Position numbers and translations under genes: made by a program. The notes under the pieces are model-generated. The model was not told the DNA's origin and ran no database searches. It saw nothing but the letters and a program-made list of their open reading frames with translations. This document shows, piece by piece, positions 1-43,020 of a stretch of 43,020 bases of DNA; position 1 is the first letter of the stretch, and each line of letters opens with the position of its first letter. This DNA is from a virus (lineage: Duplodnaviria; Heunggongvirae; Uroviricota; Caudoviricetes), in IMG/VR virus record IMGVR_UViG_2585427786_000006; one strand, given 5' to 3'.

Positions 1-135
1 TCAATAAGTTGGAGTCATTACCCTGTTTTTTGCTGTGTCAGGAACCCCCAGATTTTCCCTGACTCTTACGCCTTTATAAACAAACCAGATACGTAATTTC
101 CCTCCATGGTTTTCCACGCCTGTCGGATATTTCAT
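1..135 (-). pseudogene. integrase N-terminal remnant (44 codons)
   Basis: Minus-strand ATG at 133-135 gives MKYPTGVENHGGKLRIWFVYKGVRVRENLGVPDTAKNR..., resembling the N-terminus of Rac/Qin-type tyrosine integrases; in-frame stop at 1-3. Confidence 0.4.
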
Positions 136-421: not shown

Positions 422-493
422 CGATTTCTTTATCTCTTACATCAGACGAGCGCCGGTTGCAGAATACCAGTCACAACCGGCGACAGTTGAACA

Positions 494-2965: not shown

Positions 2966-3058
2966 TTTGTTTTAACCTCATGACAGATTTAAGGATGAAC
3001 AAATCCCTGCCATTGCTGGCATATAAGAATGAAACCGGATATTTATTACGGAACTGTT

Positions 3059-3250
3059 TTAAAGACCTGCCGGGATTTCGATATTATCCTGGTGAATAAC
3101 TTTATCGACCGGGTAACAGTTACCGGGAATTTTCTGTTCGGTTGCTGCAGTCATACACTCCTGCATTGTCCTGTGAACACTGACTGCAATATCAACTGGC
3201 TCTCCGGAAACAAGAAAAACTGTCAGAACAAGCGCAAATGCTGAATTCAT
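3059..3250 (-). CDS. ydfD: YdfD-like small lysis protein (63 aa)
   Basis: MNSAFALVLTVFLVSGEPVDIAVSVHRT... with hydrophobic N-terminus; start overlaps the dicB stop (ATGA); position immediately after dicB. Confidence 0.55.
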   Translation of the reverse strand: MNSAFALVLTVFLVSGEPVDIAVSVHRTMQECMTAATEQKIPGNCYPVDKVIHQDNIEIPAGL

Positions 3251-5541: not shown

Positions 5542-6046
5542 ACAGGCTCGTGAGGCTCTGGATGCCTGGATATGTCGACCAGGAATGACACAGGAGCAGG
5601 CGACGATATTAATCACTGAAGCATTCTGGGCTTTGAAAGAGCGCCCGAACATCGATGTTCAGCGTGTCACAGATGAAGGTGGCGCGGTTGATCAGCGAGC
5701 GCTTGGCGTTAATCGAGTGAAGATATTCGAACGCTGGAAGGCTATCGACACCAGGGATAAGCGTGAAAAGTTCACGGCGCTAGTGCCTGCAATTATGGAG
5801 GCTATCCGGATTAATGATTTCAGGTTGTATCGTGAAATTAGTGACGGAAAAAGCATCACGTACATGATCGCCGGGTTAAACAAAGAATATGGCGATGTGG
5901 TGGAGTCCGGACTGCTTTTTGCTGATCCTGCCGTAGTGGATCGTGAAACTGACGAACTTATAGAAAAAGCAATTGCTTTCAAACTTGCGTATCGACAGCA
6001 ATACCAACAAAAAGCTGGATGGAATTATGAGCCTTCTTTTTGCTGA
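5525..6046 (+). CDS. putative CII-like/YdaT-family early regulator (173 aa)
   Basis: Overlaps dicC stop; resemblance to YdaT-type proteins (MKI..., REKFTALVPAIMEAI); follows the Cro-like gene. Confidence 0.4.
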   Translation: MKITPEQAREALDAWICRPGMTQEQATILITEAFWALKERPNIDVQRVTDEGGAVDQRALGVNRVKIFERWKAIDTRDKREKFTALVPAIMEAIRINDFRLYREISDGKSITYMIAGLNKEYGDVVESGLLFADPAVVDRETDELIEKAIAFKLAYRQQYQQKAGWNYEPSFC

Positions 6047-6848
6047 ACGCCCACTGGTTATAAACACACAGCTTGCGATGAAGATTGGCTTAAATGAAGC
6101 CATTGTGTTGCAGCAGTTGCATTACTGGTTGAGAGATACCAATTCCGGCATGGAATGTGATGGTGTTCGCTGGATTTACAACACAACGGAACAATGGCTG
6201 GAACAGTTCCCATTCTGGTCAGAGTCAACGTTAAAGCGCGCGTTTGCAAGTCTGAAAACGCTGGGGCTTTTGCGTTGTGAAAAGCTCAATAAATCAAAGC
6301 GCGATATGACCAATTTCTACACGATCAACTATGGGAGCGAGCTTTTAGATGGTGGCAAATTGAACGAATCCATCGGTTCAAAATGCGCCGCTCCATCAGG
6401 TCAAAATGACACGATGGAAGAGGTCAAAATGAAACGCTCCATTGGTTCAAAACGACCCAATGTCATCGGGTCAAAATGGCCTGATGATCTTACAGAGAAT
6501 ACAACAGAGATTACTACAGAGAATAAAAACACTTTTCGTCCGGAAGCTTCGCAACCGGACCTGCAGACCGCTGAACAGGATTTTTTAATCCGGAACCCCG
6601 ACGCGGTTGTGTTTAGTGCGAAAAAACGCCAGTGGGGTAGCAGGGAGGATTTGGCGTGTGCGCAGTGGATTTGGGGGCGGATCGTGAACCTTTACGAACA
6701 GGCTGCCTTTAAGGAGGACTTGTGGCAAAAGTTTTTACACAGGAAGAGCGGGAAAAAATTAAAGAGCAGGTGGTCGAACTTGTGCGCCAGAGCGGTCGCG
6801 AGACATTACGACAGTTGGAAGCTAAAACAGGTGCGACAAGATATCTGA
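6027..6848 (+). CDS. replication initiator (replisome-organizer N-terminal domain), contains origin iterons
   Basis: MSLLFAERPLVINTQLAMKIGLNEAIVLQQLHYWL... typical of phage replisome organizers; iteron array lies inside the gene as in lambda O. Confidence 0.6.
   Translation: MSLLFAERPLVINTQLAMKIGLNEAIVLQQLHYWLRDTNSGMECDGVRWIYNTTEQWLEQFPFWSESTLKRAFASLKTLGLLRCEKLNKSKRDMTNFYTINYGSELLDGGKLNESIGSKCAAPSGQNDTMEEVKMKRSIGSKRPNVIGSKWPDDLTENTTEITTENKNTFRPEASQPDLQTAEQDFLIRNPDAVVFSAKKRQWGSREDLACAQWIWGRIVNLYEQAAFKEDLWQKFLHRKSGKKLKSRWSNLCARAVARHYDSWKLKQVRQDI
6370..6479. repeat. origin iterons: five copies of about 15 bp (consensus CATCGGGTCAAAATG), followed by an AT-rich ACAGAGA-repeat segment (6480-6530)
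   Basis: Direct repeats at about 6370, 6393, 6416, 6439, 6463 spaced 23-24 bp apart, encoding repeated IGSK peptide motifs. Confidence 0.55.
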
Positions 6849-11492: not shown

Positions 11493-12017
11493 TTATTGTT
11501 TAACCCATAATAGTTCATTGACATTGAATCCCAACTTTTGAGCGGTACGCACATAGTCTGCTTTTACATTATCTGGAATAGTTTGGGTCCTTGCCAGAAT
11601 CCATAGGTATTCTCTGTTCGGACCACTGACAAGAGCATACTTATACTCATCATCCAGCTTGATTACATTATAGCCACCATAGAAGGGGCCAAAAAACGAA
11701 ACTTTCAACGCTGCAGTTTTAGTATCTCCAGTAAAGTATGCTTTACCTTCGCTCTCGCTCCATTTGTTTTTCGTTGGATCGTATCCACGGTTAAGTACGC
11801 GAATCCCTCCGTCGTTCCGTTTTTCATAAGTAGCGCTGACCTGTTCCAGACCACGTTCGAACCAGTTCTCGAGGCGAGCTATTTCATACCATTTTCCGAG
11901 GTAGCGGTTGGCGTCAAAATTTGTAATCGGCTGCACACCTTTAGGTGGTGTCGGGGCCTTACATGCTATAAGAGTGAAAGAGAGTGCAATGCCAGTCAAC
12001 ACAGGCCATAACTTCAT
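11493..12017 (-). CDS. blc: outer-membrane lipoprotein lipocalin (Blc family), 174 aa
   Basis: Lipobox LIAC; NFDANRYLGKWYEIARLENWFERGLEQVSATY...GKAYFTGDTKTAALKVSFFGPFYGGYNVIKLD recognised as Blc-like; antisense to late transcription. Confidence 0.8.
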   Translation of the reverse strand: MKLWPVLTGIALSFTLIACKAPTPPKGVQPITNFDANRYLGKWYEIARLENWFERGLEQVSATYEKRNDGGIRVLNRGYDPTKNKWSESEGKAYFTGDTKTAALKVSFFGPFYGGYNVIKLDDEYKYALVSGPNREYLWILARTQTIPDNVKADYVRTAQKLGFNVNELLWVKQ

Positions 12018-12209
12018 AATAAATCCTGTACTTTTGATAGTTGAGAGTAAGTATGAAAGATAGATGAGTACGACCGATCACTTAAAGAACTTTCCTACTA
12101 TATTAGGAATAGTCAATAACAGAAAAATTGTCAGTGATGAAGCCAGAAAGGCAATTTAGTCCGTGCACTACAAAGTTTATGTGTTAATGAATTAGTCAAG
12201 GGGGAGGAA

Positions 12210-13169
12210 ATGATAAAAAAACCTGTGATTGGGATCAGCGGTTGTTTGGGCGGTTCTGCTGTTCGTTTTGATGGTGGTCACAAAAGAGATGACTTTTTAA
12301 TGGACAAATTAGTGGAATGGGTAACATTCAGACCAGTATGTCCGGAAATGGCTATAGGGCTGCCAGTTCCGCGTCCTGCTCTACGACTTGTGCGCTCGAA
12401 GCAAGGAAATATACGGATGTGTTTCAGCCACGACCAGAATGAGGATGTGACAGAGAGAATGACAGAGTTTAGTCGTTCTTATATGGACAAATTAAAGGAT
12501 GTATCGGGGTTTGTGGTTTGTGCTAAATCTCCCAGCTGTGGCATGGAGCGCGTGCGTGTCTATGATGAAAATGGTAATCGAGGTCGTAAAGATGGAGTGG
12601 GACTATTTACGAGCACTTTGATGGAAAAGTTTTCCTGGCTACCGGTTGAAGAGGATGGGCGATTACATGATCCAGTGCTTCGTGAGAATTTTATTGAAAG
12701 AGTTTTTGCTTTGCATGAGCTCAATCACCTTTACAAGGAGAAATTATCAAGAAGAGAGTTATTAGCTTTTCATAGTCGTTATAAGCTTCAGTTGTTGGCG
12801 CATAGCCAGGCAGGCTATAAAGATATGGGACCATTTGTGGCTGCAATACACGAGTGGGCGGACCTTGAATCATACTTTGAGGTGTATCGTGATAATCTGA
12901 TGGCGATTCTCAGAAAACCAGCATCACGTAAAAATCACACGAATGTGCTGATGCATATACAGGGGTATTTTAGTAATTACTTAAGTACACGCCAGCGTAA
13001 AGAGTTGAGCGAGGTTATACTTAACTATCGCTTTGGCACATTGCCTCTTCTTGCGCCGTTGACTCTGCTGAAGCATTATCTGGGTGAGTATCCTAATGAT
13101 TACTTGCTTACACAGAATTACTTCGATCCCTATCCGGAAGAACTGGCTCTAAGACTGATGGTGAATTAA
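12210..13169 (+). CDS. DUF523 (TudS-like, Cys-rich)-DUF1722 (YbgA-like) fusion protein, 319 aa
   Basis: N-terminal GISGCLGG...CPEMAIG...CAKSPSCG motifs; C-terminal YbgA-like region; GGGGGAGG RBS. Confidence 0.55.
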   Translation: MIKKPVIGISGCLGGSAVRFDGGHKRDDFLMDKLVEWVTFRPVCPEMAIGLPVPRPALRLVRSKQGNIRMCFSHDQNEDVTERMTEFSRSYMDKLKDVSGFVVCAKSPSCGMERVRVYDENGNRGRKDGVGLFTSTLMEKFSWLPVEEDGRLHDPVLRENFIERVFALHELNHLYKEKLSRRELLAFHSRYKLQLLAHSQAGYKDMGPFVAAIHEWADLESYFEVYRDNLMAILRKPASRKNHTNVLMHIQGYFSNYLSTRQRKELSEVILNYRFGTLPLLAPLTLLKHYLGEYPNDYLLTQNYFDPYPEELALRLMVN

Positions 13170-13575
13170 CTGTATGCGATATCATCTGAAAGTGATGAGT
13201 TCCTGTATGCAGGATATTTACAATCGTAAAAACTACGCTATGATGCTCATAGTGTCAGTTTTTATAAAAATCCTGTTCACGCTAAAGAAAACATTGAGAT
13301 GCAATTTAATGTTGGTAAACATACCAGCCCCAAACGATTTTATTCAATCTGTTTTTATATGAAGATATTTCAAGTGAATATTAAGAGTATATAATATTAT
13401 TATTGCACGCAGCTATTATAATATAACAGATTAGTTTAATGATTTGTTTTTTGTGAGTTAAACACATGGTTTTATAGTTGTGATGCAATGAGATTTTCCT
13501 TATTGTTGAACTGGCGAATATTGATTTTCCACCTATACTTACCTGGTGTAACCCCAATGATATCAGGTGGATAAT

Positions 13576-14289
13576 ATGCCATACATATGTTCTATCATTT
13601 TGGTGTTGAACTCGTTTGGTGTCCGAATTGGTAAAGAAGATATTTTGTTTAAAAAAGGAAATGCTGTCCTCATTGAATACAATTTAAAAGATCTTTTTTC
13701 GTCAAATACAGATCATCTAATGATCGTAGATGTTGAGGAGAAAACAGTTAATGATTTCTTTAAAAACTACACACTCTCACCTTTTTCTGTAAGAAGGTTT
13801 TATCCGTCATACTTGATAGTAGAATGTGAAGATTTTTCATTGTTAAAGAACTTGGTTGCATGCTTGAATTGTGATAGCAAAACCGTGGATGTAGTTAGAA
13901 ATCAAATATCACTTGCATGTCTTGCTGTCTTATCTTCAGAGAAAATAGTGCAAAGTTTTTTGTTCGGAAGTCTTAATAGCTTAGGTTGTAAAGTTAAGGC
14001 TATTATTCACTCGGATATCTCAGCGTCATGGAGACTTTGTGATATATCTTCAAGATTATATATGAGCGAGAGTTTGTTAAAAAGAAAATTAAAAGACGAA
14101 GGATTATCGTTTAGTAAATTAATTCTTGAAGAACGAATGATGATGGCGCAAAGATTATTGATCTACAGTAACCATACTGTCGGCAAGGTGGCGGGAATAT
14201 GCGGGTATGACAATGCATCATATTTTGTAAGTGTTTTTAGAAGATATTTTGGTGTGCCTCCGCACCAATATTTATCAAGATTTTCTTAG
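13576..14289 (+). CDS. AraC-family transcriptional regulator, AppY/GadX-like (237 aa)
   Basis: C-terminal AraC HTH (LCDISSRLYMSESLLKRKLKDEGLSFSKL...ICGYDNASYFVSVFRRYFGVPPHQY); N-terminus resembles AppY; AT-rich gene and flanks. Confidence 0.75.
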   Translation: MPYICSIILVLNSFGVRIGKEDILFKKGNAVLIEYNLKDLFSSNTDHLMIVDVEEKTVNDFFKNYTLSPFSVRRFYPSYLIVECEDFSLLKNLVACLNCDSKTVDVVRNQISLACLAVLSSEKIVQSFLFGSLNSLGCKVKAIIHSDISASWRLCDISSRLYMSESLLKRKLKDEGLSFSKLILEERMMMAQRLLIYSNHTVGKVAGICGYDNASYFVSVFRRYFGVPPHQYLSRFS

Positions 14290-14699: not shown

Positions 14700-14918
14700 A
14701 TGACTAAAAACTATGAACTGATTGTGAAAGGGACCCGCAATTTTGAGAATAAAGTTACGGTAATCTTAACGTTACAGGACAAAGAACGTTTTGCCGGTGA
14801 AATTTTTGATCTGAACATCAACCTTGAGCGACTTGAAGGAGCTGGTTTGGATTATTATGAAGTTACTGCGGTAAAACATGCCAAACAGTTCTTGAGAGAT
14901 TTGGCTGAAAAAATATAA
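14700..14918 (+). CDS. hypothetical protein (72 aa) inserted between holin and endolysin
   Basis: ATG 5 nt after holin stop, SD GGAGAG inside holin 3' end; no family recognised. Confidence 0.5.
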   Translation: MTKNYELIVKGTRNFENKVTVILTLQDKERFAGEIFDLNINLERLEGAGLDYYEVTAVKHAKQFLRDLAEKI

Positions 14919-14936
14919 AGCGGCATTACTGCCGCT
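14905..14936 (-). terminator. hairpin terminator oriented for the antisense 98-aa gene
   Basis: AGCGGCA-TTAC-TGCCGCT stem-loop between convergent stops, U-rich tract on the minus-strand side only. Confidence 0.4.
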
Positions 14937-14942
14937 TAGAAA

Positions 14943-15239
14943 TTATTCAATGTCTGGTAGCTTATCAAAGATTTCGGATACTCTTATATTTGTCATATAA
15001 GCAAATTGAGATTCTGCCAGCTCTTTGGGTGATTTTCCCGCTTTTTCTGAGCCAAAAATTGTTTCTAAAGCCAGCATGTTATATTTGAGAACCTCTTCTC
15101 GAGTTTTACCTGATAATTTTGCGGTAACAGCAATATAAAAAGGCAACACTTTATCCAGAAGGTCGTTGTGTTTTGTCAGTTGTGGTAATACCACATCAAG
15201 TTGCTTACTGATTGGTTTGAATGGATCTATACCGTTCAT
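14943..15239 (-). CDS. hypothetical protein (98 aa), antisense gene inside the lysis cassette
   Basis: ATG preceded by AAGGGA; non-repetitive protein MNGIDPFKPISKQLDVVLPQLTKHNDLLDK...; candidate TTAAGC-N17-GATACT promoter in 15270-15330. Confidence 0.5.
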   Translation of the reverse strand: MNGIDPFKPISKQLDVVLPQLTKHNDLLDKVLPFYIAVTAKLSGKTREEVLKYNMLALETIFGSEKAGKSPKELAESQFAYMTNIRVSEIFDKLPDIE

Positions 15240-15366
15240 AGTTACATTCCCTTATCAGAGGTAATCAGCCATCCCCCCTTTATTACACACGCCAGTATCC
15301 ACCACTGACGGGCTGAGTGCTTAACATATCTAGAGATTAGAAACTGATAAATCCTGATAAATATCC

Positions 15367-16757: not shown

Positions 16758-16970
16758 ATGTCTAACAAAATGACTGGTTTAGTGAAATGGTTTAACCCTG
16801 AAAAAGGTTTTGGTTTCATCACGCCGAAAGATGGTAGCAAAGATGTGTTTGTCCATTTCTCAGCTATTCAGAGCAACGATTTCAAAACGTTAACTGAGAA
16901 TCAGGAAGTCGAATTTGGTATTGAGAACGGACCTAAAGGCCCCGCGGCTGTTCATGTTGTGGCACTTTGA
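16758..16970 (+). CDS. cspI: cold-shock protein CspI-like (70 aa)
   Basis: [39 protein letters not shown]... with RNP motifs; long AT-rich 5' leader upstream. Confidence 0.85.
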
Positions 16971-17169
16971 GGTAGAAAATATTACAAACCATATTCACTT
17001 TAGATGCCCGTGTTGCCATGGTTCTCAGTATAGAACATCATCTTTTGATGTTTCTGACAGGAATCCTTTCGGGGCAAAATGTATCTTTTGTAAATCAATG
17101 ATGATTACATTTGATAATATTTCACAATACTTAAATGTTAGCCGTCTGTCGTTAGATTTAAGAAAGTGA
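16954..17169 (+). CDS. YnfN-like Cys-rich small protein
   Basis: ...[54 protein letters not shown]; ATG overlapping the cspI 3' end; start uncertain. Confidence 0.4.
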
Positions 17170-17175
17170 AAATGA

Positions 17176-17197
17176 AGGCTCCTTCGGGAGCTTTTTT
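17176..17197 (+). terminator. intrinsic terminator after the cspI/ynfN unit
   Basis: GGCTCC-TTCG-GGAGC hairpin plus T6. Confidence 0.55.
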
Positions 17198-17241
17198 GCT
17201 TAGTGTCTAGTCGATGGATACTCACATATTACGGTAACATT

Positions 17242-17472
17242 ATGAAAAAAATAATAGTTTTTTTTAACTCTGAACCAGCAATGGTAGTGCCAGTGATGAC
17301 CGGAGTTAACACCATCATGCGTGAATATCCAAATGGCGAAACAACACACCTCACTGTAATGGCTGCAGGGTTTCCATCTCTGACCGGAGATCATAAAGTC
17401 ATTTATGTAGCAGCGGATCGGCATGTAACTTCAGAAGAAATTCTGGAAGCAGCAATGAGACTCTTGAATTGA
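17242..17472 (+). CDS. hypothetical protein (76 aa)
   Basis: ORF track internal ATG (MKKIIVFFNSEPAMVVPVMTG...); AT-rich accessory region. Confidence 0.4.
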   Translation: MKKIIVFFNSEPAMVVPVMTGVNTIMREYPNGETTHLTVMAAGFPSLTGDHKVIYVAADRHVTSEEILEAAMRLLN

Positions 17473-17641
17473 TTTGATTCTAATGCATTGATAATAAATG
17501 ATAATCATCTTTATCTGTTTGTGTGAAATTTAGACCGTCGTATGTTGATTATTGCGATGTTTCATCTTATCTTTTATACGCTTGCTCCATATAATTGACA
17601 CTACTGTGTACCAGGAAAGTCATAACAGACTAAAAGAGGAA

Positions 17642-17818
17642 ATGATGAACATTGAAGAGTTAAAAACAAAAACAGAAGCAGATATTTCTGAATATATAAC
17701 AAAAAAAATCATTGAGCTTAAGAAAAAGACCGGGAAAGAAGTTACCAGTATCCAGTTTACTGCACGGGAAAAAATGACTGGTCTTGAAAGCTATGATATC
17801 AAGATTGATTTAATCTAG
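17642..17818 (+). CDS. gnsB: GnsB-like protein (57 aa)
   Basis: MNIEELKTKTEADISEYITKKIIELKKKTGKEVTSIQFTAREKMTGLESYDIKIDLI recognised as GnsA/GnsB family; AGAGGA RBS. Confidence 0.75.
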   Translation: MMNIEELKTKTEADISEYITKKIIELKKKTGKEVTSIQFTAREKMTGLESYDIKIDLI

Positions 17819-21727: not shown

Positions 21728-23202
21728 TGGCAATTCTTGATGATGTGATTGGCGTTTTTTCACCAGGATGGAAAGCGGCAAGGCTGCGTTCCCGTGCGGT
21801 GATCCAGGCTTATGAGGCCGTAAAAACGACGCGGACACACAAAGCCCGACGGGAGAACCGAACTGCCGACCAGTTAAGCCAGTACGGGGCCGTGTCGTTA
21901 CGTGAGCAGGCCCGTTACCTTGATAACAACCACGATCTGGTTATTGGTGTATTTGACAAGCTGGAAGAACGGGTGGTGGGGAAAAACGGGATTATTGTCG
22001 AGCCACATCCGGTATTACGCAATGGGGCCATTGCCCGTGACCTGGCTGCGGAGATTCGCACCCGATGGAGTGAATGGTCTGTCAGCCCGGAAGTCACCGG
22101 GCAGTTTACCCGTCCGATGCTGGAACGTCTGATGCTTCGTACCTGGCTGCGCGATGGTGAGGTGTTTGCCCAGATGGTTTCCGGGCGCATAAACAGCCTG
22201 ACGCCTTCTGCCGGTGTTCATTTCTGGCTGGAGGCGCTCGAGCCGGACTTTATTCCCATGACCAGTGATGAGAGCAACAGGCTGAATCAGGGCGTGTTTG
22301 TTGATGACTGGGGGCGTCCCGAAAAATATCTGGTGTATAAAAGTCGTCCTGTATCCGGACGGCAGATGGAAACCAAAGAAGTGGATGCAGAGCGAATGCT
22401 GCATCTTAAATTTGTTCGCCGTCTGCACCAGATGCGCGGGACGTCTTTATTGTCCGGTGTGCTGATCCGCCTCAGCGCCCTGAAAGAGTATGAAGATTCT
22501 GAGCTGACTGCAGCAAGGGTCGCCGCTGCTCTGGGGATGTACATCCGCAAAGGCGACGGACAGAGCTATGAAACGGATGGTAATGACAGCAAGGAGAATG
22601 AACGCGAGCTTACCATTCAGCCAGGCATTATTTACGACGATCTGAAACCCGGCGAAGAAATCGGAATGGTGAAGTCGGATCGCCCAAATCCTAACCTTGA
22701 AACTTTTCGTAATGCTCAGTTGCGTGCCGTGGCGGCGGGCAGTCGTCTGAGTTTTTCCAGTACAGCGCGCAACTATAACGGCACTTACAGCGCCCAGCGT
22801 CAGGAGCTGGTTGAATCCACTGATGGCTACCTGATCCTGCAGGACTGGTTTATTGGTGCCGTCACCCGCCCGATGTATCGTGCCTGGCTGAAACAGGCTG
22901 TGGCATCCGGTGTTATCAGGCTACCCCGCGATCTTGACCGTTCTTCACTGTATACCGCGGTGTATTCCGGACCGGTGATGCCGTGGATTGACCCTGTTAA
23001 GGAGGCTGAGGCCTGGAAAATCCAGATTCGTGGTGGAGCGGCGACAGAATCAGACTGGGTACGTGCAGGTGGTCGTAATCCGGATGATGTCAAACGTCGG
23101 CGCAAGGCCGAAATTGATGAAAACCGCAAGCTGGACCTGGTATTTGATACCGATCCGGCCAGTGATAAAGGAGGCAGCAGTGCCGCAACGAAACGACAGT
23201 AG
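21727..23202 (+). CDS. portal protein (gpB-like)
   Basis: ATG overlaps gpW stop; about 490 aa with lambda-B-like features. Confidence 0.85.
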   Translation: MAILDDVIGVFSPGWKAARLRSRAVIQAYEAVKTTRTHKARRENRTADQLSQYGAVSLREQARYLDNNHDLVIGVFDKLEERVVGKNGIIVEPHPVLRNGAIARDLAAEIRTRWSEWSVSPEVTGQFTRPMLERLMLRTWLRDGEVFAQMVSGRINSLTPSAGVHFWLEALEPDFIPMTSDESNRLNQGVFVDDWGRPEKYLVYKSRPVSGRQMETKEVDAERMLHLKFVRRLHQMRGTSLLSGVLIRLSALKEYEDSELTAARVAAALGMYIRKGDGQSYETDGNDSKENERELTIQPGIIYDDLKPGEEIGMVKSDRPNPNLETFRNAQLRAVAAGSRLSFSSTARNYNGTYSAQRQELVESTDGYLILQDWFIGAVTRPMYRAWLKQAVASGVIRLPRDLDRSSLYTAVYSGPVMPWIDPVKEAEAWKIQIRGGAATESDWVRAGGRNPDDVKRRRKAEIDENRKLDLVFDTDPASDKGGSSAATKRQ

Positions 23203-25207
23203 CCGCAGTACACCGACGACCAGTCCGAAGAATAATTCCTGGTTCAGGATGCAGGCTGGTCACCAGAGTGACGCGGATATTTATATTTATGACGAGATTG
23301 GTTTCTGGGGTGTTACAGCGAAGCAGTTTATCAGTGATCTGAATGCACTGGGCGATATCACCCACATTAATCTCCATATCAATTCACCGGGTGGCGATGT
23401 CTTTGAAGGCATCGCCATTTTTAATGCGCTGAAAACACATGGTGCGTCCATTACCGTTTATGTCGACGGTGTGGCGGCATCAATGGCGTCGGTCATTGCG
23501 ATGGTGGGAAACCCGGTCATTATGCCGGAAAACACCTTCATGATGATTCATAAACCATTTGGCTTTACGGGCGGTGATGCGGAGGACATGCGCACCTATG
23601 CCGACCTGCTCGATAAAGTTGAGGCGGTTCTGTTACCCGCTTATGCACAGAAAACCGGGAAAACCACCGATGAAATTGCTGCCATGCTGGCGGATGAGAC
23701 CTGGATGTCCGGTGCCGAATGTCTGGCACATGGATTTGCTGATCAGGTAACGCCAGCCGTTAAGGCAATGGCATGTATTCAGTCAAAACGTACAGAGGAA
23801 TTTAAAAAGATGCCGGAATCCATTCGAAACATGATTACTCCGCCACGCAACAGTGCTCCACGCGTACAGGATAATGAACCTGAAGCCTCCCGGACGCCAG
23901 TGCAGGCAGCAGCACCCGTGGTGGATGAAAACAGCATCCGTGCGCAGGTACTGGCAGAGCAAAAAGCGCGTGTAAACGGTATTAATGATCTGTTTGCCAT
24001 GTTTGGCGGGCGTTATCAGACGCTGCAGGCTCAGTGTCTTGCCGATCCTGAATGTTCGCTGGAGCAGGCCCGCGAAAAGCTGTTGAACGAGATGGGGCGC
24101 GAGTCCACGCCATCCAATAAAAATACCCCGGCTCATATTTATGCCGGTAACGGTAATTTTGTGGGGGACGGGATCCGCCAGGCGCTGATGGCGCGTGCCG
24201 GATTTGAAAAAACCGAACGTGATAATGTCTACAACGGGATGACCCTGCGTGAATATGCCCGTATGTCACTGACTGAACGGGGTATTGGGGTTTCCAGTTA
24301 TAACCCGATGCAGATGGTCGGTGCGGCGTTCACACACAGTACGTCTGACTTCGGTAATATTCTGCTGGATGTTGCGAACAAAGCCATTCTGCAGGGCTGG
24401 GAAGATGCCCCTGAAACCTATGAACAGTGGACGCGGACAGGTCAGTTGTCTGATTTTAAAATTGCCCATCGTGTGGGTATGGGGGGCTTCAGTGCTCTGC
24501 GTCAGGTGCGTGAAGGGGCGGAATATAAATACGTCACCACCGGAGATAAACAGGCCACTATTGCACTGGCGACCTATGGCGAGCTGTTCAGTATCACCCG
24601 TCAGGCCATTATCAATGATTATCTGAATATGCTGACCGATGTCCCGATGAAGTTGGGCCGTGCGGCGAAATCCACTATTGCCGATCTGGTTTATGCCATT
24701 CTGACGTCTAACCCGAAAATCTCCACAGATAATGTAAGTCTGTTCGATAAAGCGAAACATGCAAACGTACTGGAGAGCGCTGCAATGGACGTGGCATCGC
24801 TGGATAAAGCCCGCCAGTTGATGCGCGTTCAGAAAGAGGGGGAGCGTCATCTGAATATTCGTCCTGCGTTCGTACTGGTACCGACGGCGATGGAGTCTGT
24901 TGCTAACCAGGTCATTCGCTCCTCAAGTGTCAAGGGGGCTGACATTAACGCCGGTATTATTAACCCGGTGAAAGATTTTGCGACCGTTATTGCAGAGCCT
25001 CGTCTTGATGATAACAGCCAGACCACCTTCTACCTGGCTGCGTCAAAAGGCTCCGATACGATTGAAGTGGCTTATCTCAACGGTGTGGATACGCCATATA
25101 TTGATCAGATGGAGGGCTTCAGTGTGGATGGCGTGACAACGAAAGTGCGTATTGACGCCGGTGTCGCGCCAGTTGATCACCGCGGTCTGGTGAAATGTAC
25201 GGCGTAA
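23180..25207 (+). CDS. prohead protease (ClpP/S49-like)-major capsid protein fusion
   Basis: N-terminal protease motifs (IYIYDEIGFWG, INSPGGDVFEG, YVDGVAASMASVI), C-terminal HK97-fold capsid-like domain; AAAGGAGG then GTG start (alternative ATG at 23249). Confidence 0.8.
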   Translation: MPQRNDSSRSTPTTSPKNNSWFRMQAGHQSDADIYIYDEIGFWGVTAKQFISDLNALGDITHINLHINSPGGDVFEGIAIFNALKTHGASITVYVDGVAASMASVIAMVGNPVIMPENTFMMIHKPFGFTGGDAEDMRTYADLLDKVEAVLLPAYAQKTGKTTDEIAAMLADETWMSGAECLAHGFADQVTPAVKAMACIQSKRTEEFKKMPESIRNMITPPRNSAPRVQDNEPEASRTPVQAAAPVVDENSIRAQVLAEQKARVNGINDLFAMFGGRYQTLQAQCLADPECSLEQAREKLLNEMGRESTPSNKNTPAHIYAGNGNFVGDGIRQALMARAGFEKTERDNVYNGMTLREYARMSLTERGIGVSSYNPMQMVGAAFTHSTSDFGNILLDVANKAILQGWEDAPETYEQWTRTGQLSDFKIAHRVGMGGFSALRQVREGAEYKYVTTGDKQATIALATYGELFSITRQAIINDYLNMLTDVPMKLGRAAKSTIADLVYAILTSNPKISTDNVSLFDKAKHANVLESAAMDVASLDKARQLMRVQKEGERHLNIRPAFVLVPTAMESVANQVIRSSSVKGADINAGIINPVKDFATVIAEPRLDDNSQTTFYLAASKGSDTIEVAYLNGVDTPYIDQMEGFSVDGVTTKVRIDAGVAPVDHRGLVKCTA

Positions 25208-27685: not shown

Positions 27686-28075
27686 ATGATGTTTCTGAAA
27701 CAGGGCACGTTTAATTATGAAAAACAGTCCGTGGTGCTCAGTGAGCTGTCCGGGCTGCAGAGAATTGAATATCTGGCGTTTGTTCAGCAGCGAACGGCAA
27801 AGTTTGATGCCGGGGAGGGAGAACTGCCGGAGGCTGAACGACAGATTGCTTTTCTGCGGATGGGGATGGATATCAATGCCTGGCTGGTTTCCCGCTCACT
27901 GTGGAATGCGGATCAGTCTAAGGATGTAGAGACGCTTTGCGCATCCGTTATTACAACATGGTCGTATGATGCCCTGGGTGCGGGGGCGGAGATGGTTCTG
28001 TCGCTGAGCGGTATGGGGGCCATTGATAATGCCGGGGATGATGAGCATGAGGCGCTGACGCCGGAAAAGTCCTGA
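27686..28075 (+). CDS. tail assembly chaperone gpG-like
   Basis: MMFLKQGTFNYEKQSVVLSELSGLQRIEYLAF... as lambda G; GGTGGAG RBS. Confidence 0.8.
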   Translation: MMFLKQGTFNYEKQSVVLSELSGLQRIEYLAFVQQRTAKFDAGEGELPEAERQIAFLRMGMDINAWLVSRSLWNADQSKDVETLCASVITTWSYDALGAGAEMVLSLSGMGAIDNAGDDEHEALTPEKS

Positions 28076-28413
28076 CGCGGGAAATGCAGTTTGTCATGCG
28101 GCTTGCCCGGGAGTTCCGGCGGGCAGACTGGCGGCGGATGCTGTCGGAAATGTCGGCCACTGAGCTTGGTGAGTGGGGCGATTATTTCCGGATGCAGAGC
28201 TTCAGTGATGTGTGGATGGATGCGCAGTTTGCCTCGCTGAAGGCATTGATCGTGAGAATGGTGTCCGGCAGCAGTGATGCTGCGGTGGCTGATTTCAGCC
28301 TTTTACCGGAAGAGAACGGGATACCGGAGCGAACGGACGAAGAACTGATGCATCTTGGAGAAGGTATTTCCGGAGGTGTGCGTTATGGACCAGATAGCCA
28401 ACCTGGTCATTGA
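28051..28413 (+). CDS. gpT-frame segment, expressed as G-T fusion by programmed -1 frameshift
   Basis: -1 frame open from 28051 through 28413, overlapping the G 3' end; candidate slippery site G GAA AAG at 28063-28069. Confidence 0.55.
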   Translation, partial: GADAGKVLTREMQFVMRLAREFRRADWRRMLSEMSATELGEWGDYFRMQSFSDVWMDAQFASLKALIVRMVSGSSDAAVADFSLLPEENGIPERTDEELMHLGEGISGGVRYGPDSQPGH

Positions 28414-31400
28414 TTTGGGGATTGATGCGGCAGAGTTTAAAAATGAAATTCCCCGTATCAAAAACCTTCTGAATGGTGCCGCCAGCGATGCAGAACGGTC
28501 TTCTGCCCGTATGCAGCGTTTTATGGAGCGTCAGACTCAGGCCGCCCGGCAGACAACGCAGGCGGCTTCTTCGGCTGCAACAGCCGCCTCCGTCCATGCG
28601 CAGACGGTGGAGAAGAACGCACAGGCTCATGAACGCATGGCCCGCGAGGTGGAGAAACCCCGCCAGCGCATGGAGGCGCTGAGCCAGAAAATGCGCGATG
28701 AACAGGCGCAGGCCATGGCTCTGGCGGAGGCTCAGGATAAAGCGGCTGCTGCGTTTTATCGTTAGATTGACAGTGTGAAACAGGCCAGTGCGGGGCTGCA
28801 GGAATTACAGCGTATTCAGCAGCAGATCCGACAGGCCAGAAACAGTGGCGGGATTGGTCAGCAGGATTATCTGGCGCTGATTTCTGAGGTTACGGCGAAA
28901 ACCCGTGTTCTTACACAGGCTGAGGAAGAGGCTACCCGACAGAAAGTGGCGTTTATCCGTCAGCTTAAAGAGCAGGCAACCCGCCAGAATCTTTCATCTT
29001 CTGAGTTGCTTCGTGCTAAGGCAGCCCAGCTGGGGGTAAGCAGTGCTGCAGAAGTGTATATCCGCAAAATGGAGCAGGCAGGAAAAGCCACGCATTCGCT
29101 GGGTCTGAAAAGTGCAGCAGCCCGCCAGGAGATAGGCGTTCTGATAGGTGAACTGGCCCGCGGCAATTTAGGGGCGCTGAGGGGATCCGGGATAACGCTG
29201 GCTAACCGTGCCGGATGGATAGACACACTGATGTCACCGAAAGGCATGATGCTTGGCGGGGTTATTGGCGGTATTGCCGCGGCCGTCTATGGTCTGGGTA
29301 AAGCCTGGTATGACGGTCAGAAGGAGGGGGAAGAATTTAACCGCCAGTTGTCGCTGACGGGGCATTATGCCGGAGTTACTGCCGGGCAGCTGTGGACGCT
29401 CAGTCGTGCTATTTCCGGGAATGGTATCACGCAACATGCTGCAGCCGGTGCGCTGGCTCAGGTGGTGGGGAGTGGTGCATTTCGTGGAAACGATATCGGT
29501 ATGGTGGCGAGAGCTGCCGCACAGATGGAGCGATCGGTTGGCCAGTCGGTCAGCGATACCATAAATCAGTTTAAGCGGCTGAAGGATGATCCTGTAAATG
29601 CCGCGAAGGCTCTGGACAATGAGCTGCATTTTCTTACTGCCACTCAGCTTGAGCAGATACGCGTCCTTGGGGAGCAGGGGCGGTCCAGTGATGCTGCACG
29701 GATAGCCATGTCTGCACTGGCAGAGGAAACCGGTCGGCGTACTGCGGATATTGATAATAACCTCAATGCGCTTGGCAGTACGCTGAAGTATCTGTCTGAT
29801 TTGTGGAGTCGTTTCTGGGATGCGGCCATGAATATTGGTCGTGAAGACTCGCTGGATGAACAGATTGCCGCTTTACAGGAGAAAGTGTCGCGGGCGAAAA
29901 GACTCCCCTGGACGGCATCATCTTCTCAGGTTGAATACGATCAGCAGCGTCTTAACGATCTTCAGGAGAAAAAACGCCAGAAGGATTTGCAGGATGCAAA
30001 AGAGCAGGCAGAGCGGAATTATCAGGAGCAACAGAAACGCCGTAATGCTGAAAATGCTGCACTGAACCGGATGAATGAAACGGAAGCAGCACGACATCAG
30101 CGTGAAATTGCGCGTATTAATGCCATGCAGTACGCCGATCAGGCTGTCAGGGATGCGGCGATACAACGTGAAAATGAACGTTACGAGAAAGCCCTGGCAT
30201 CCGGTAAGAAAAAAACACGCGAAACCCGTAATGATGAGGCCACCCGGTTATTGCTGCAGTACAGCCAGCAACAGGCACAGGTGGAAGGACAGATTGCTGC
30301 TGCAAGACAGTCAGCAGGCATTGCCACTGAAAAGATGACAGAAGCGCATAAACAGCTTCTGGCTCTGCAGCAGCGCATCAGCGATCTGGACGGGAAAAAA
30401 CTGACGGCAGATGAAAAGAGTGTGCTGGCCCGTAAAGATGAACTGATTCAGGCACTGACGCTGCTGGATGTAAAACAGCAGGAGCTTCAGAAACAGACGG
30501 CACTCAACGATCTGAAGAAAAAAACAATTCAGCTGACCAGTCAACTGGCTGAAGAAGAGCGCGCTCAGCGTCAGCAACATGACCTGGATATCGCCACGGT
30601 GGGTATGGGTGATCAGCAGCGGCAGCGATATCAGGTACAACTGAGCCTTCGCCAGAAATACCAGCAACAGCTGGAGCAGTTGAGGCGGGATAGTGAGCAG
30701 AAAGGGACATATAACACGGATGACTACAGAAAGGCCGAGCAGGCGCTGACGGAGAGCCTGAACAGGCAACTGAATGAGAATCGCCGTTACTGGCAACAGC
30801 TTGAAATTGCTCAGGGTAACTGGAAAAACGGTGCCATGCGGGCGTTTCAGAATTTCACGGCAGATGCGGATAATGCGGCAGGCACTGCGGAGCAGATGCT
30901 TACAGCGGCATTTAATAGTGCAGGTAATGCACTGGCTACATTCTGTACCACCGGAAAACTGAACTTCAAATCTTTTACCGCCTCGCTCCTTTCTGATCTG
31001 GCAAAAATCATGGCTCAGATGTCCATGATGCAGACAGTTAAGGGGATTGGTTCGGCGTTTGGCTGGGGGAGTGCAGCAACTGCCAGTGTGACGCCCAATG
31101 CTGATGGTGGTGTTTATCAGTCTGCTGATTTGAGTCGCTACAGTGGCACGGTGGTTAACCGTCCGACGTTTTTTGCTTTTGCAAAAGGTGCAGGTGTGAT
31201 GGGGGAAGCTGGGCCTGAAGCCATTCTGCCTCTGCGTCGTGGTGCTGACGGTAAGCTGGGGGTTGTGGCGGATATTGGTGGTTCAGGTATGGCGATGTTT
31301 GCCCCGCAGTACAACATCGAGATCAATAACGATGGCACGAACGGGCAGATAGGTCCGGCTGCCCTGAAGGTGGTTTATGACCTCGGGAAAAAAGCAGCAG

Positions 31401-31459
31401 CGGACTTTATGCAACAGCAGGCCCGTGATGGTGGTCGGTTAAGTGGAGCATATCGGTAA
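28385..31459 (+). CDS. tail tape measure protein gpH-like, interrupted by in-frame TAG at 28763-28765
   Basis: N-terminus MDQIANLVIDLGIDAAEFKNE... and C-terminus ...INNDGTNGQIGPAALKVVYDLGKKAAADFMQQQARDGGRLSGAYR as lambda H; single frame throughout with one amber codon. Confidence 0.8.
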
Positions 31460-31788
31460 TGGAGACGTTTCACTGGAAAGTGCGCCCGGATATGAATGTG
31501 GTATCAGAGCCGAAAGTGGTGACAGTGAAGCTGGGCGATGGTTATGAACAGCGTCGTGCGGCGGGACTGAATAACCAGTTGTCGACTTACAGCGTGACGA
31601 TACGTGTTCGTAAATGTGAACACCCATCTTTAAAAGCCTTTCTGGAACGGCACGGTGGCGTCCGCGCATTTCAGTGGACGCCACCTTATGACTGGAAACC
31701 GATTAGGGTGGTTTGTCGTAAATGGTCGGCAAGCGTGGGGGCGCTGTGGGTAACCATAACGGCAGATTTTGAACAGGTCGTGGCATAG
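31459..31788 (+). CDS. minor tail protein gpM-like
   Basis: METFHWKVRPDMNVV...GDGYEQRRAAGLNNQLSTYSVT... as lambda M. Confidence 0.85.
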   Translation: METFHWKVRPDMNVVSEPKVVTVKLGDGYEQRRAAGLNNQLSTYSVTIRVRKCEHPSLKAFLERHGGVRAFQWTPPYDWKPIRVVCRKWSASVGALWVTITADFEQVVA

Positions 31789-31797
31789 GAGGCTCTG

Positions 31798-32496
31798 ATG
31801 CAGGATATTCCACAGGAAACACATCATGAGACGACACGCCTCACTCAGTCAGCCCAGGTGGTGCTCTGGGAAATCGATCTGACAGAGGTCGGTGGTGAAC
31901 GTTATTTTTTCTGTAATGAGCAGAACGAAAAAGGTGAGCCGGTCACCTGGCAGAGACGACAGTATCAGCCGTATCCCATTCAGGGGACGGGATTTGAACT
32001 GAACGGCAAGGGCAGTGCTGCCCGTCCGACACTGACGGTTTCTAACCTGCACGGTATGGTCACCGGGATGGCGGAAGAGCTGCAGAGTCTGGTCGGCGGA
32101 ACGGTGGTCCGGCGTAAGGTTTACGCCCGTTTTCTGGATGCGGTGAACTTCGTCAACGGAAACAGTGACGCCGACCCGGAGCAGGAGGTGATCAGCCGCT
32201 GGCGCATCGAGCAGTGCAGCGAACTGAGCGCGGTCAGTGCCTCTTTTGTACTGGCCACGCCGACGGAAACGGACGGCGCTGTTTTTCCGGGACGTATCAT
32301 GCTGGCCAACACCTGCACCTGGACCTATCGCGGCGATGAGTGCGGTTATCACGGTCCGGCGGTCGCGGATGAATATGACCAGCCAACGTCCGATATCACG
32401 AAGGATAAATGCAGCAAATGCCTGAGCGGTTGTAAGTTCCGCAATAACGTCGGCAACTTTGGCGGCTTCCTTTCCATTAACAAACTTTCGCAGTAA
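31798..32496 (+). CDS. minor tail protein gpL-like
   Basis: Lambda L-like sequence with C-terminal Cys cluster. Confidence 0.85.
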   Translation: MQDIPQETHHETTRLTQSAQVVLWEIDLTEVGGERYFFCNEQNEKGEPVTWQRRQYQPYPIQGTGFELNGKGSAARPTLTVSNLHGMVTGMAEELQSLVGGTVVRRKVYARFLDAVNFVNGNSDADPEQEVISRWRIEQCSELSAVSASFVLATPTETDGAVFPGRIMLANTCTWTYRGDECGYHGPAVADEYDQPTSDITKDKCSKCLSGCKFRNNVGNFGGFLSINKLSQ

Positions 32497-32501
32497 ATCC
32501 C

Positions 32502-33245
32502 ATGACAGAGACAGAATCAGCGATTCTGGCGCACGCCCGGCGATGTGCGCCAGCGGAGTCGTGCGGCTTCGTGGTGAGAACGCCGGAGGGAGAAAGATAT
32601 TTTCCCTGCGTGAATATCTCCGGTGAGCCGGAGGAGTATTTCCGGATGTCGCCGGAGGACTGGCTGCGGGCAGAAATGCAGGGTGAGATTGTGGCGCTGG
32701 TCCACAGCCACCCCGGTGGTCTGCCCTGGCTGAGTGAGGCCGACCGGCGGCTGCAGGTACAGAGTGATTTGCCGTGGTGGCTGGTCTGCCGGGGTGAGAT
32801 TCATAAATTCCGCTGTGTGCCGCATCTCACCGGGCGGCGCTTTGAGCACGGGGTGACGGACTGTTACACGCTGTTCCGGGATGCTTACCATCTGGCGGGG
32901 ATTGAGATGCCGGATTTTCATCGCGGGGATGACTGGTGGCGTAACGGTCAGAATCTCTATCTGGATAATCTGGAGGCTACAGGGCTGTATCAGGTGCCGT
33001 TGTCAGCGGCGCAGCCGGGCGATGTGCTGCTGTGCTGTTTTGGTTCATCGGTGCCGAATCATGCCGCTATTTACTGCGGCGACGGCGAGCTGCTGCACCA
33101 TATTCCTGAACAACTGAGCAAACGAGAGAGGTATACCGACAAATGGCAGCGACGCACACACTCCCTCTGGCGTCACCGGGCATGGCACGCATCTGCCTTT
33201 ACGGGGATTTGCAACGATTTGGCCGCCGCATCGACCTTCGTGTGA
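32502..33245 (+). CDS. tail assembly protein gpK-like (MPN/JAB plus NlpC/P60)
   Basis: HSHPGG (JAB) motif and C-terminal Cys/His peptidase-like motif. Confidence 0.85.
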   Translation: MTETESAILAHARRCAPAESCGFVVRTPEGERYFPCVNISGEPEEYFRMSPEDWLRAEMQGEIVALVHSHPGGLPWLSEADRRLQVQSDLPWWLVCRGEIHKFRCVPHLTGRRFEHGVTDCYTLFRDAYHLAGIEMPDFHRGDDWWRNGQNLYLDNLEATGLYQVPLSAAQPGDVLLCCFGSSVPNHAAIYCGDGELLHHIPEQLSKRERYTDKWQRRTHSLWRHRAWHASAFTGICNDLAAASTFV

Positions 33246-33790
33246 AAACGGGGGCCGAAGCCATCCGGGCGCTGGCCACTCAGCTCCCGGCGTTTCGTCA
33301 GAAACTGAATAAGGGCTGGTATCAGGTGCGCATTGCCGGGCGTGATGCAGGCGAAAATGAATTATCTGCCCGTCTTAATGAGCCGCTGGCAAATGGTGCC
33401 GTGATCCACATCGTGCCGCGTCTGGCGGGAGCTAAAAGTGGCGGTGTGTTTCAGGTGGTGCTTGGGGCGGCGCTGATTGCGGTGGCATGGTGGAACCCTG
33501 TGGGCTGGCTGGGTGCCGCGGCTGTATCGGGCATGTATGCGGCAGGGGCCAGTATGATCCTGGGCGGAGTGGCGCAGATGCTGGCACCGAAAGCCAGGAC
33601 GCCCACGGCAGCCAGTACAGATAACGGCAAACAGAACACCTATTTCTCCTCACTGGATAACATGGTTGCCCAGGGCAATGTTTTGCCTGTTCTGTACGGT
33701 GAAATGCGCGTGGGGTCGCGGGTGGTTTCTCAGGAGATCAGCACGGCAGACGAAGGGGATGGTGGTCAGGTTGTGGTGATTGGTCGCTGA
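33143..33790 (+). CDS. tail assembly protein gpI-like
   Basis: MAATHTLPLASPGMARICLYGDLQRFGRRIDLRVKTG... as lambda I; overlaps K 3' end. Confidence 0.8.
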   Translation: MAATHTLPLASPGMARICLYGDLQRFGRRIDLRVKTGAEAIRALATQLPAFRQKLNKGWYQVRIAGRDAGENELSARLNEPLANGAVIHIVPRLAGAKSGGVFQVVLGAALIAVAWWNPVGWLGAAAVSGMYAAGASMILGGVAQMLAPKARTPTAASTDNGKQNTYFSSLDNMVAQGNVLPVLYGEMRVGSRVVSQEISTADEGDGGQVVVIGR

Positions 33791-33847
33791 TGCAAAATGT
33801 TTTATGTGAAACCGCCTCCGGGCGGTTTTGTCGTTTATGGAGCGTGA

Positions 33848-37249
<3,402 letters not shown>

Positions 37250-41207: not shown

Positions 41208-41782
41208 TGGTATTCAGAATGAGTGAACAACCACGGACCATAACAATTTATAATCTGCTGGCCGGAACTAATGAATTTATTGGTGAAGGTGATGCATATA
41301 TTCCGCCTCATACAGGTCTGCCAGCAAACAGTACCGATATTGCACCGCCAGATATTCCGGCAGGCTTCGTGGCTGTTTTCAACAGTGATGAGGCATCGTG
41401 GCATCTCGTTGAAGATCATCGGGGTAAAACGGTTTATGACGTGGCTTCCGGCGACGCGTTATTTATTTCTGAACTCGGTCCGTTACCGGAAAATGTTACC
41501 TGGTTATCGCCGGAAGGGGAGTTTCAGAAGTGGAACGGCACAGCCTGGGTGAAGGATACGGAAGCAGAAAAACTGTTCCGGATCCGGGAGGCGGAAGAAA
41601 CAAAAAACAACCTGATGCAGGTAGCCAGTGAGCATATTGCGCCGCTTCAGGATGCTGCAGATCTGGAAATTGCAACGGAGGAAGAAATCTCGTTGCTGGA
41701 AGCATGGAAAAAGTATCGGGTATTGCTGAACCGTGTTGATACGTCAACTTCACAGGATATTGAATGGCCAGCACTGCCGTAG
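41207..41782 (+). CDS. tail fiber assembly protein (Tfa)
   Basis: M(V/A)[42 protein letters not shown]...; TAATG overlap with stf stop. Confidence 0.85.
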
Positions 41783-41879
41783 GGTAAAACATATAAATTC
41801 TATAATTAGATGTATCTTTCCATTTACGGCAAGGAAGGGGGCTTGGAAGACGTAAAGCATCTCACACCGAGATTATTTT

Positions 41880-42470
41880 TTATATGTCAGGTGTCTGAAG
41901 TTTTGCTTTGGCTCTTAAAATGGTTTGCCGCGAGGTTTTGAATTCCCGGGCAATGGCACTTATACTTACACCTGACTTAATTCGTTCGAATACCACCTGT
42001 TTCTGTTCTTCATTTAACACAGGTGGTCGACCAAAACGTTTCCCTGCGCCGCGGGCTCTTACTATCCCGGAATGAGTGCGTTCAAGTAAAAGGTCTCGTT
42101 CAAATTCAGCGACTGCTGAAATTACTTGCATCATCATTTTTCCTGTTGGACTGGTCAGGTCAATGCCCCCCAATGCTAAGCAATGCACTCTGATACCTGT
42201 TTCGGTCAGTTGTTCCACTGTTTTCCTGATATCCATTGCATTACAACCAAGGCGATCCAGTTTTGTCACAATCAATTGATCACCACATTTCAGGCGAGCA
42301 AGCAACCGGTTAAAACCAGGACGCTCACTGGTTGCTGCTGAGCCACTAATGTGTTCTTCGATTATTTGCTGAGGTTTGATTTTAAAACCTGCACTTTCGA
42401 TTTCCCGGCGTTGATTTTCGGTGGTCTGATCCAGCGTTGATATCCGACAGTAAGCAAAAATTTGAGACAT
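41880..42470 (-). CDS. pin: serine recombinase, Pin/Gin/Hin-family DNA invertase (196 aa)
   Basis: [20 protein letters not shown]... with catalytic Ser in YCRIS context and C-terminal HTH; adjacent to stf-tfa. Confidence 0.85.
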
Positions 42471-42786
42471 AGTGAGACTCTATACGAAATTGGTGTTCAT
42501 ATCATAATGCATCTCAGAAAATAATTATGATTATTTTTGTGCATATTTGTATGTACACGTTCGAAAATAAACGAATGCGTATGCAACCCCGTAATTTTGG
42601 TGAGACCCAAAATCGATTTTGTGAAAAATGGCTTTAACTCGGTTTGTTTTTCGAGTTCCGGGCGGACTCAAGGAAGAAGAATAGTGTTGCGTGTTATTTT
42701 AACCAGATTTCAAGTTGTTTGGTCGTGGAAAAGTGGAGCAAAATGTTGTTAAAGTGGAAAAATGATAAAAAAGTAAGTTTATTATA

Positions 42787-43020
42787 TTACATTTTACCAT
42801 TTAAATTTTGGTTGTCTTTAAGAACTGATATCGCTGTTTGTAATAATTCTTTGTTATCCAGCCATGATTTTTTCTTTATGTTTCCTTCAATGTAATCAAG
42901 CAATGTTCTGGTATTGATAGGTCTTCCCTGTTTTGCTACTTCCACTACAGCATCCCCTAGGATAATTCTTACTTCAGGAAGCTGCGCAGGGAACCACTTT
43001 AGGGTGTCTTTTGATTTCAT
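42787..43020 (-). CDS. ydfK: YdfK/YnaE-family cold-shock-inducible prophage protein (77 aa)
   Basis: MKSKDTLKWFPAQLPEVRIILGDAVVEVAKQGRPINTRTLLDY... recognised as YdfK/YnaE; start codon is the last three bases of the window. Confidence 0.7.
   Translation of the reverse strand: MKSKDTLKWFPAQLPEVRIILGDAVVEVAKQGRPINTRTLLDYIEGNIKKKSWLDNKELLQTAISVLKDNQNLNGKM

Follow-up and report, generated by a model that had tools for sequence, protein, structure and literature searches.

The closest described counterparts of the locus analyzed here are the amber (sus) mutants of phage lambda gene H, the defective lambdoid prophages of E. coli, and the intact phages mEp460, cdtI, phi458, HannyBb, Tritos and Ayreon. 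In lambda H amber mutants, a sense codon of the tape-measure gene has become TAG, and the phenotype to be expected would be a lack of tails, with non-infectious heads, unless the stop is suppressed. Lambdoid prophages with multiple lesions are common in E. coli (PMC2669165). Those of the Sakai strain (Sp; PMC2669165) and Qin of K-12 combine several independent lesions with many intact genes. The intact phages have one uninterrupted tape-measure gene, with CAG at codon 127.

The stretch studied here (the window, 43,020 nt at its full length) is a lambdoid prophage of the mEp460/cdtI type, with the order xis-exo...Q-lysis-terminase-head-tail-fibre. It shares an identical gene order with the intact phages and is 96–99% identical to them in nucleotide sequence across the structural region; unlike them, it has TAG at codon 127. 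HannyBb differs further in having an intact integrase gene and a full-length O gene. As in the lambda H amber mutants, a sense codon of a gene of the same family has been changed to TAG. In this case, however, the change was not induced by mutagenizing a phage stock but occurred naturally, in a prophage resident in strain isolates, and it is accompanied by an IS1 insertion in the integrase gene (int::IS1) and a frameshift in O, so suppression alone would give no viable phage. The kinds of lesion (IS insertion, deletion or frameshift, and point mutation) are those seen in the defective prophages. Yet the window is much less decayed than Qin, its late operon being intact except for H, indicative of an early stage of decay.

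The interrupted tape-measure gene

The affected gene lies after the tail assembly chaperone genes G and T and before M-L-K-I-J (Table 1). G and T match PF06894 (Phage_TAC_2) and PF06223 (Phage_tail_T), respectively, and T overlaps the start of H. Three tape-measure domains, all located downstream of the TAG, scored above their Pfam gathering cut-offs: TMP_2 (168.4 bits, cut-off 30.2), TMP_4 (63.6 bits, cut-off 27) and Tape_meas_lam_C (84.8 bits, cut-off 23). The downstream open reading frame (ORF) also aligned with the solved lambda tape-measure protein (8iyk_H; E 7e-43, query residues 157–892 to gpH 116–851), and homology in this part of the gene reaches the last residue of gpH. Upstream of the TAG, the 126-aa fragment alone matched gpH 5–57 (E 1e-9). 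The H protein of the intact relative aligned with gpH in two segments (2–56 to 3–57, and 289–1024 to 122–853); at 1024 aa it is 171 residues longer than gpH (853 aa), to which it is ∼25% identical. Judged by these domains, alignments and gene order, we assign the gene to the gpH family as a lambda-H-like tape-measure gene.

Nucleotides 28751–28786 of the window read GCG TTT TAT CGT TAG ATT GAC AGT GTG AAA CAG GCC. Translation around the stop gives AFYR-stop-IDSVKQ, with the TAG in frame with ATG 28385. The ORF list divides the H frame into 28355–28765 (136 aa from a TTG, or 126 aa from ATG 28385) and 28775–31459 (894 aa from a GTG, in the same frame), with no other interruption. Alignment of the window H with its closest intact relative over positions 1–3075 showed no gaps, three mismatches, and a single internal stop at codon 127 of 1024. 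The first-pass annotation had described the frame from 28385 to 31459 as open but for one TAG, and the letters, the ORF list and this alignment all agree. A run of 894 sense codons would occur by chance with P ∼2e-19. Together with the three tape-measure domains downstream, this indicates that both halves of H are real coding sequence. There is no single uninterrupted frame for a full-length ruler, and the window H is a pseudogene of the gpH family. Its N-terminal fragment additionally carries a derived Thr92-to-Pro change (28658).

Table 1. Positions of the features discussed, numbered from the first letter of the window
Feature	Position	Strand	Details
Outer end of IS1 copy interrupting the integrase gene	1–22		Window 1–41 identical to locus L016 260–300
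Integrase gene remnant, first 114 nt only	22–135	–	1281-nt integrase gene of the relative: nt 1–114 match window 135–22
Replication gene O with 311-bp deletion	6027–6848	+	Junction 6707/6708, frameshift
Tail assembly chaperone genes G, T	G 27689–28075, T 28084–28413	+	Intact, 100% identical to intact relative
H N-terminal fragment, 126 codons	28385–28762	+	SD at start, dG –10.8; module conserved with lambda gpH 3–57
Premature amber stop TAG, codon 127 of H	28763–28765	+	CAG (Gln) to TAG, C-to-T transition at 28763
Rest of H, 897 sense codons and TAA	28766–31459	+	TMP_2, TMP_4, Tape_meas_lam_C; gpH-homologous C-terminal region
Tail genes M, L, K, I, J	31459–37249	+	Full length, no internal stops, 99.6–100% identical to intact relative

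Origin and distribution of the stop codon

For comparison, we inspected codon 127 directly in ten distinct relatives, namely phi458, mEp460, mEp460_ev081, cdtI, Tritos, Ayreon, PhiR55_1, HannyBb, vB_EcoS-606R10 and the WP8-S17 prophage. All ten have CAG. In all except vB_EcoS-606R10, the tape-measure gene is annotated as uninterrupted, with a length of 3057–3075 nt. The CAG-bearing relatives include phages that are viable, that is, plaque-forming or induced (mEp460, cdtI, phi458, HannyBb, Tritos and Ayreon). Over 131 nt, the sole difference that sets the window apart from all three of phi458, mEp460 and the prophage of E. coli WP8-S17-ESBL-05 is the C-to-T change at 28763. The TAG is a genuine nonsense mutation, derived from CAG (Gln127) by this single substitution. 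Comparison with the H genes of related phages had been proposed along with the first-pass annotation, and its outcome upholds the nonsense mutation that the annotation claimed. No Dcm (CCWGG) or Dam (GATC) motif was found at the TAG site. With neither motif there, a 5-methylcytosine deamination hot spot at 28763 was rejected, as was a nanopore methylation-motif error.

By exact-sequence look-up, at least 18 contigs proved to carry the 126-aa fragment and the 894-aa ORF; this is a lower bound on the number of carriers, which are draft short-read assemblies. We fetched ten carrier loci, and the TAG was present in every one. They come from nine other assemblies or runs: GCA_000713985.1, 000713175.1, 000714415.1, 000714055.1, 000714385.1, 958328675.1 and 002991975.1, and the Logan assemblies of SRA runs SRR25035157 and SRR1186628. 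Independence of these assemblies was judged by accession prefixes and by SNP differences between them. The loci differ from the window by 0–7 SNPs over 12–23 kb, and the one in GCA_000714415.1, on a 91-kb contig, is 100% identical to the window over 22.7 kb. Source records name some of the carriers, E. coli 4-203-08_S3_C2 and C3, and these are strain isolates; names of this pattern probably belong to a series of human stool isolates with several colonies per sample.

Beyond these carriers, the allele is rare. A 35-mer centered on the TAG had no match in 5,426 complete E. coli genomes (by megablast, where only TAG-bearing records can seed). The H stretch is carried by ∼1,806 of the same 5,426 genomes, and ∼1,800 complete genomes have the same flanks as the TAG site, yet none has the TAG. 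A 40-mer containing it was likewise absent from GTDB species representatives, IMG/VR and JGI metagenome contigs. The closest CAG-bearing prophage, that of WP8-S17, is three substitutions away from the window in the 7 kb around H. This small distance, together with the rarity of the allele, suggests that the mutation is recent and limited to one small clade. The contigs of the carriers end at IS1 and within the tail-fibre gene, short of the host flanks, and it is the near-identity of the carriers that points to vertical inheritance of the TAG allele in one small E. coli lineage. In principle, recombination could repair the allele, as similar prophages are present in many E. coli, with up to six copies of this H stretch per genome.

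The first-pass annotation had also raised the possibility of a sequencing error. A sequencing or assembly artefact, with C as the true base, could be entertained in that the carriers are short-read drafts. In addition, the variants at 28658 and at 32739/32741/32759 occur in all four combinations among the carriers, which could reflect mixed paralogous prophage copies. But the TAG recurs in ten loci from nine other assemblies or runs, among them raw SRA data re-assembled by Logan, which is hard to reconcile with an error, and none of the ten fetched loci of this lineage has a sense codon at 28763–28765. A motif-specific systematic error is excluded, since the ∼1,800 complete genomes share the flanks and lack the TAG; the site also has neither a Dcm nor a Dam motif. 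We therefore regard an artefact as extremely unlikely.

GenBank lists the two parts of H as separate proteins, KEK96039.1 (126 aa) and KEK96038.1 (894 aa), as might be the case for a genuine two-gene arrangement, or for programmed recoding in which the TAG is read as an amino acid. The chance that either applies here seems negligible. The stop is absent from all relatives (CAG in ten of ten, and the 35-mer in 0 of 5,426 complete E. coli genomes), and no related intact phage with a two-gene H was found. Among the 52 window genes tabulated, there is one in-frame TAG, whereas TAG acts as the normal terminator seven times (TGA does so 25 times and TAA 20 times). Moreover, the flanks are otherwise identical to those of the relatives, so no dedicated signal has evolved, and the window has no suppressor tRNA and no ribosome binding site for the second part.

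Translation beyond the stop

As the first-pass annotation had noted, no plausible ribosome binding site precedes the downstream part of H. The best duplex with the anti-SD at GTG 28775 is +0.4 kcal/mol. Of 12 real gene starts in the window, 11 have values of –5.6 to –12.9 kcal/mol. We also considered GTG 28946 as an internal start and rejected it; this codon lies 181 nt beyond the stop and has AAGAGG 14 nt upstream. Other in-frame starts downstream show weak or no SD pairing and were rejected too. In bacteria, reinitiation has been reported at the first start codon with an SD-like sequence, with a strong dependence on the SD (PMC5972666). The 126-codon N-terminal fragment is the sole part of H expected to be efficiently translated, and the gene downstream of the TAG is predicted to be untranslated, or nearly so.

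Two routes might nonetheless allow the gene to yield a working tape measure. In the first, a near-cognate tRNA-Gln or a host amber suppressor would decode the UAG, inserting exactly the wild-type Gln. In the second, termination followed by reinitiation at GTG 28775 would produce an 894-aa ruler, and tails roughly 13% shorter. Read-through gains some plausibility from the origin of the stop in CAG, since insertion of Gln restores the wild-type protein. Near-cognate tRNA-Gln can misread UAG, as observed in yeast, and a U at position +4 most reduces stop-codon read-through (PMC5289835). In the window, this position is occupied by A, making some leak possible. Few copies would be needed per tail, gpH of lambda being a trimer (PMC10721106). 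As for reinitiation, GTG 28775 is 9 nt past the stop, a distance that post-termination scanning can cover (PMC5972666). In the same operon, the start of K lies 6 nt past the L stop and likewise has no SD, so coupled restarts of this kind are conceivable. Even the 894-aa product would exceed the whole 853-aa gpH in length.

Against both routes stand several observations. GTG 28775 has no SD, and a protein started there would be missing the N-terminal module that is conserved in lambda gpH. The tape measure of TP901-1 is the best dissected among siphophages; when its N-terminal 30 aa are removed, only heads are made, and its N-terminal 154 aa are indispensable (PMC5099701). No suppressor tRNA is present in the window. 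Furthermore, the prophage cannot excise or replicate normally, so even a working H would give no viable phage. On balance, we think it improbable that the gene still yields a working tape measure, and very improbable that Gln read-through at UAG-A, or restart at GTG 28775, supplies enough of it for tails. If the gene were leaky in this way, the pristine tail module would be usable, for example in complementing co-resident lambdoid prophages or by being recovered through recombination. The locus would then allow a natural test of whether lambda-type tape measures can do without their conserved N-terminal module.

Further lesions and the state of the prophage

The window is co-linear with its closest intact relative, the WP8-S17 prophage between rspB and ydfJ, which mark the Qin site of K-12. 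Qin-type genes of the WP8-S17 prophage are dicB, ydfD, hokD, rem, ydfU, cspI, ynfN, gnsB and tfaQ. At its left end the window begins in IS1, and phage-like DNA continues to 43020, with the host junctions outside; the window matches the 91-kb bacterial contig. Gene-by-gene comparison with the intact relative showed that every late gene except H is full length and free of internal stops. Between the small terminase subunit and I, most of them match the relative at 100% identity; for the capsid-protease fusion, K, J and lom, the identity is 99.6–99.95%.

Two other lesions lie outside the late genes. IS1 has interrupted the integrase gene, of which a remnant is left. In locus L016, the 281 bases up to the IS1/prophage junction equal the last 281 of the 320 IS1 bases that open locus L011, and the IS1 stretch of each locus carries a gene matching PF03400 (DDE_Tnp_IS1). 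The O gene matches over 681 of 966 nt, beyond which the frameshift puts 46 unrelated residues in place of the final 94, giving a protein of 273 aa versus 321 aa. In both WP8-S17 and the viable phage HannyBb, O has 321 aa. The altered O protein and the IS1 adjoining xis recur in a sister assembly, and the sister strain represented by L011 has an extra IS1 in its large terminase gene. Functions essential for the lytic cycle or for excision have been inactivated by the H amber, int::IS1 and the O frameshift.

The first-pass annotation had left two settings for the nonsense mutation, a defective prophage and an amber-mutant phage maintained in a suppressor host. Natural coliforms with amber suppressors have been reported, and a single-base change of CAG to TAG in an essential late gene is the typical form of a sus mutation, as in a classical conditional-lethal amber phage propagated, deliberately or naturally, in a supE/supF-type host. 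However, the carriers named in source records are strain isolates and not phage stocks, and the remaining carriers come from assemblies or runs with unrelated accession prefixes. The gene order is that of a prophage with int::IS1 and a frameshifted O, an element not otherwise viable as a phage. In addition, seven window genes end in TAG and would be extended by a strong suppressor, and a search for tRNA genes in the window found none. These data make the suppressor-host setting highly improbable, and host suppression of the TAG is probably absent. A defective prophage is favored instead, since int::IS1 and the frameshifting 311-bp deletion in O occur in the same element.

Very probably, then, the TAG is a true nonsense mutation in a lambdoid prophage of the Qin-site type that has taken three or more independent hits, is decaying in place and is inherited vertically. 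Translation from the strong H start would end after 126 residues, leaving a fragment with only the conserved N-terminal module. Such a fragment would lack the ∼900 ruler residues, with TMP_2, TMP_4 and Tape_meas_lam_C, as well as the C-terminal helix, which in lambda lies in the tail tip. With no full tape measure, there would be no tail initiator, and the induced prophage would make at most tail-less heads. Such a loss of tail assembly is suggested by the biology of lambda and TP901-1. The interrupted integrase gene would preclude excision and lock the prophage in, and with the O replication gene frameshifted as well, the element would be left to decay in place. Late transcription in lambdoid phages is Q-antiterminated, so strong polarity on M–J is not predicted. 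That the other late genes (∼24 kb) are intact counts against this reading, in that no accumulated decay downstream confirms the inactivation. Their near-identity to those of the intact relative suggests that inactivation is recent.

The locus involves no departure from known biology; it is an early-stage case of the well-known decay of lambdoid prophages. For annotation, it means that two GenBank 'genes', of 126 and 894 aa, together make up a single tape-measure pseudogene, and that the 43-kb prophage, complete though it looks, has three lesions and should be classed as defective rather than as an inducible phage. The importance beyond annotation is small. Still, the TAG allele is a handy marker of a small E. 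coli lineage, and the locus offers a snapshot of early prophage decay.

Integrase and replication lesions

IS1 stands against the integrase gene, leaving 114 nt of it, so the prophage has no functional integrase. The product of the altered replication gene O is 273 aa long and has a foreign C-terminus, versus 321 aa for the full-length protein. This altered O is common to sister assemblies L016–L019. The main features of these and other regions are listed below.

Features of the prophage, by position in the window
Feature	Position	Strand	Remark
IS1 outer end	window start		last 22 bases of the copy; adjoins integrase gene
Integrase gene remnant	135..22	minus	first 114 nt only
Gene O	6027–6848		311-bp out-of-frame deletion, junction 6707/6708
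Cargo genes	11493–14289		Q-to-holin interval; lipocalin (minus), YbgA/DUF1722-family protein, AraC-type regulator
98-aa ORF	14943–15239	minus	in lysis-cassette patch
cspI, ymcF, ynfN, gnsB	16758–17818		cold-shock-like; downstream of cargo genes
ClpP-like prohead protease–major capsid protein fusion	23180–25207		one 675-aa gene
Pin-type DNA invertase gene	41880–42470	minus	

Variation in H and K among amber carriers

Besides the amber, the tape-measure gene H differs from that of its closest intact relative at two residues, Thr92>Pro (window 28658) and Ala884>Thr (window 31034), the former falling within the N-terminal H fragment. Thr92 is retained in six of the ten other loci that carry the amber TAG. 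Judged from this distribution, Pro92 arose later than the amber or was brought in by recombination. Gene K shows three SNPs inside 21 nt (at 32739, 32741 and 32759). When this patch is considered together with site 28658, all four possible haplotype combinations are found among the TAG carriers, a pattern suggestive of gene conversion involving a paralogous prophage, of recurrent change, or of paralogous copies mixed in draft assemblies.

The start codon of K is the ATG at 32502, 6 nt past the L stop (region 32496–32504). No Shine–Dalgarno pairing is seen at this ATG; this, together with the proximity of the L stop, suggests that K may be translated through coupling or reinitiation.

Mosaic patches, capsid genes and the right end

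The lysis cassette contains a mosaic patch (14860–15357), in which unrelated sequence takes the place of the closest relative's ydfR-like gene. The adjoining lysozyme gene is only 95.5% identical, versus 99–100% for neighbouring genes. The Qin prophage has the same cold-shock-like genes as the window. The protease–capsid fusion gene is intact, and relatives are annotated with the same fusion.

At the right end, window 41671–43020 is 98.8% identical to positions 21949–23298 of the viable related phage HannyBb, and WP8-S17, which is the window's nearest relative across the structural region, does not have this stretch. The tail-fibre assembly gene ends about 100 nt from the invertase gene, and the short interval shows no alternative fibre segment.

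Further lesions in relatives

The homologous tape-measure gene of phage vB_EcoS-606R10 (partial genome; ON470578.1, 10773–11799; locus L025) is truncated independently. Codon 127 is CAG; the frame stays open for 327 codons and then meets a stop that goes with an 11-base difference in length. The gene is annotated at 984 nt. A sister strain with the same amber (GCA_000714385.1; locus L011, 1–1944) has an extra IS1 within the large terminase gene, which is called at 540 aa versus 699. This insertion is the same prophage decaying further.
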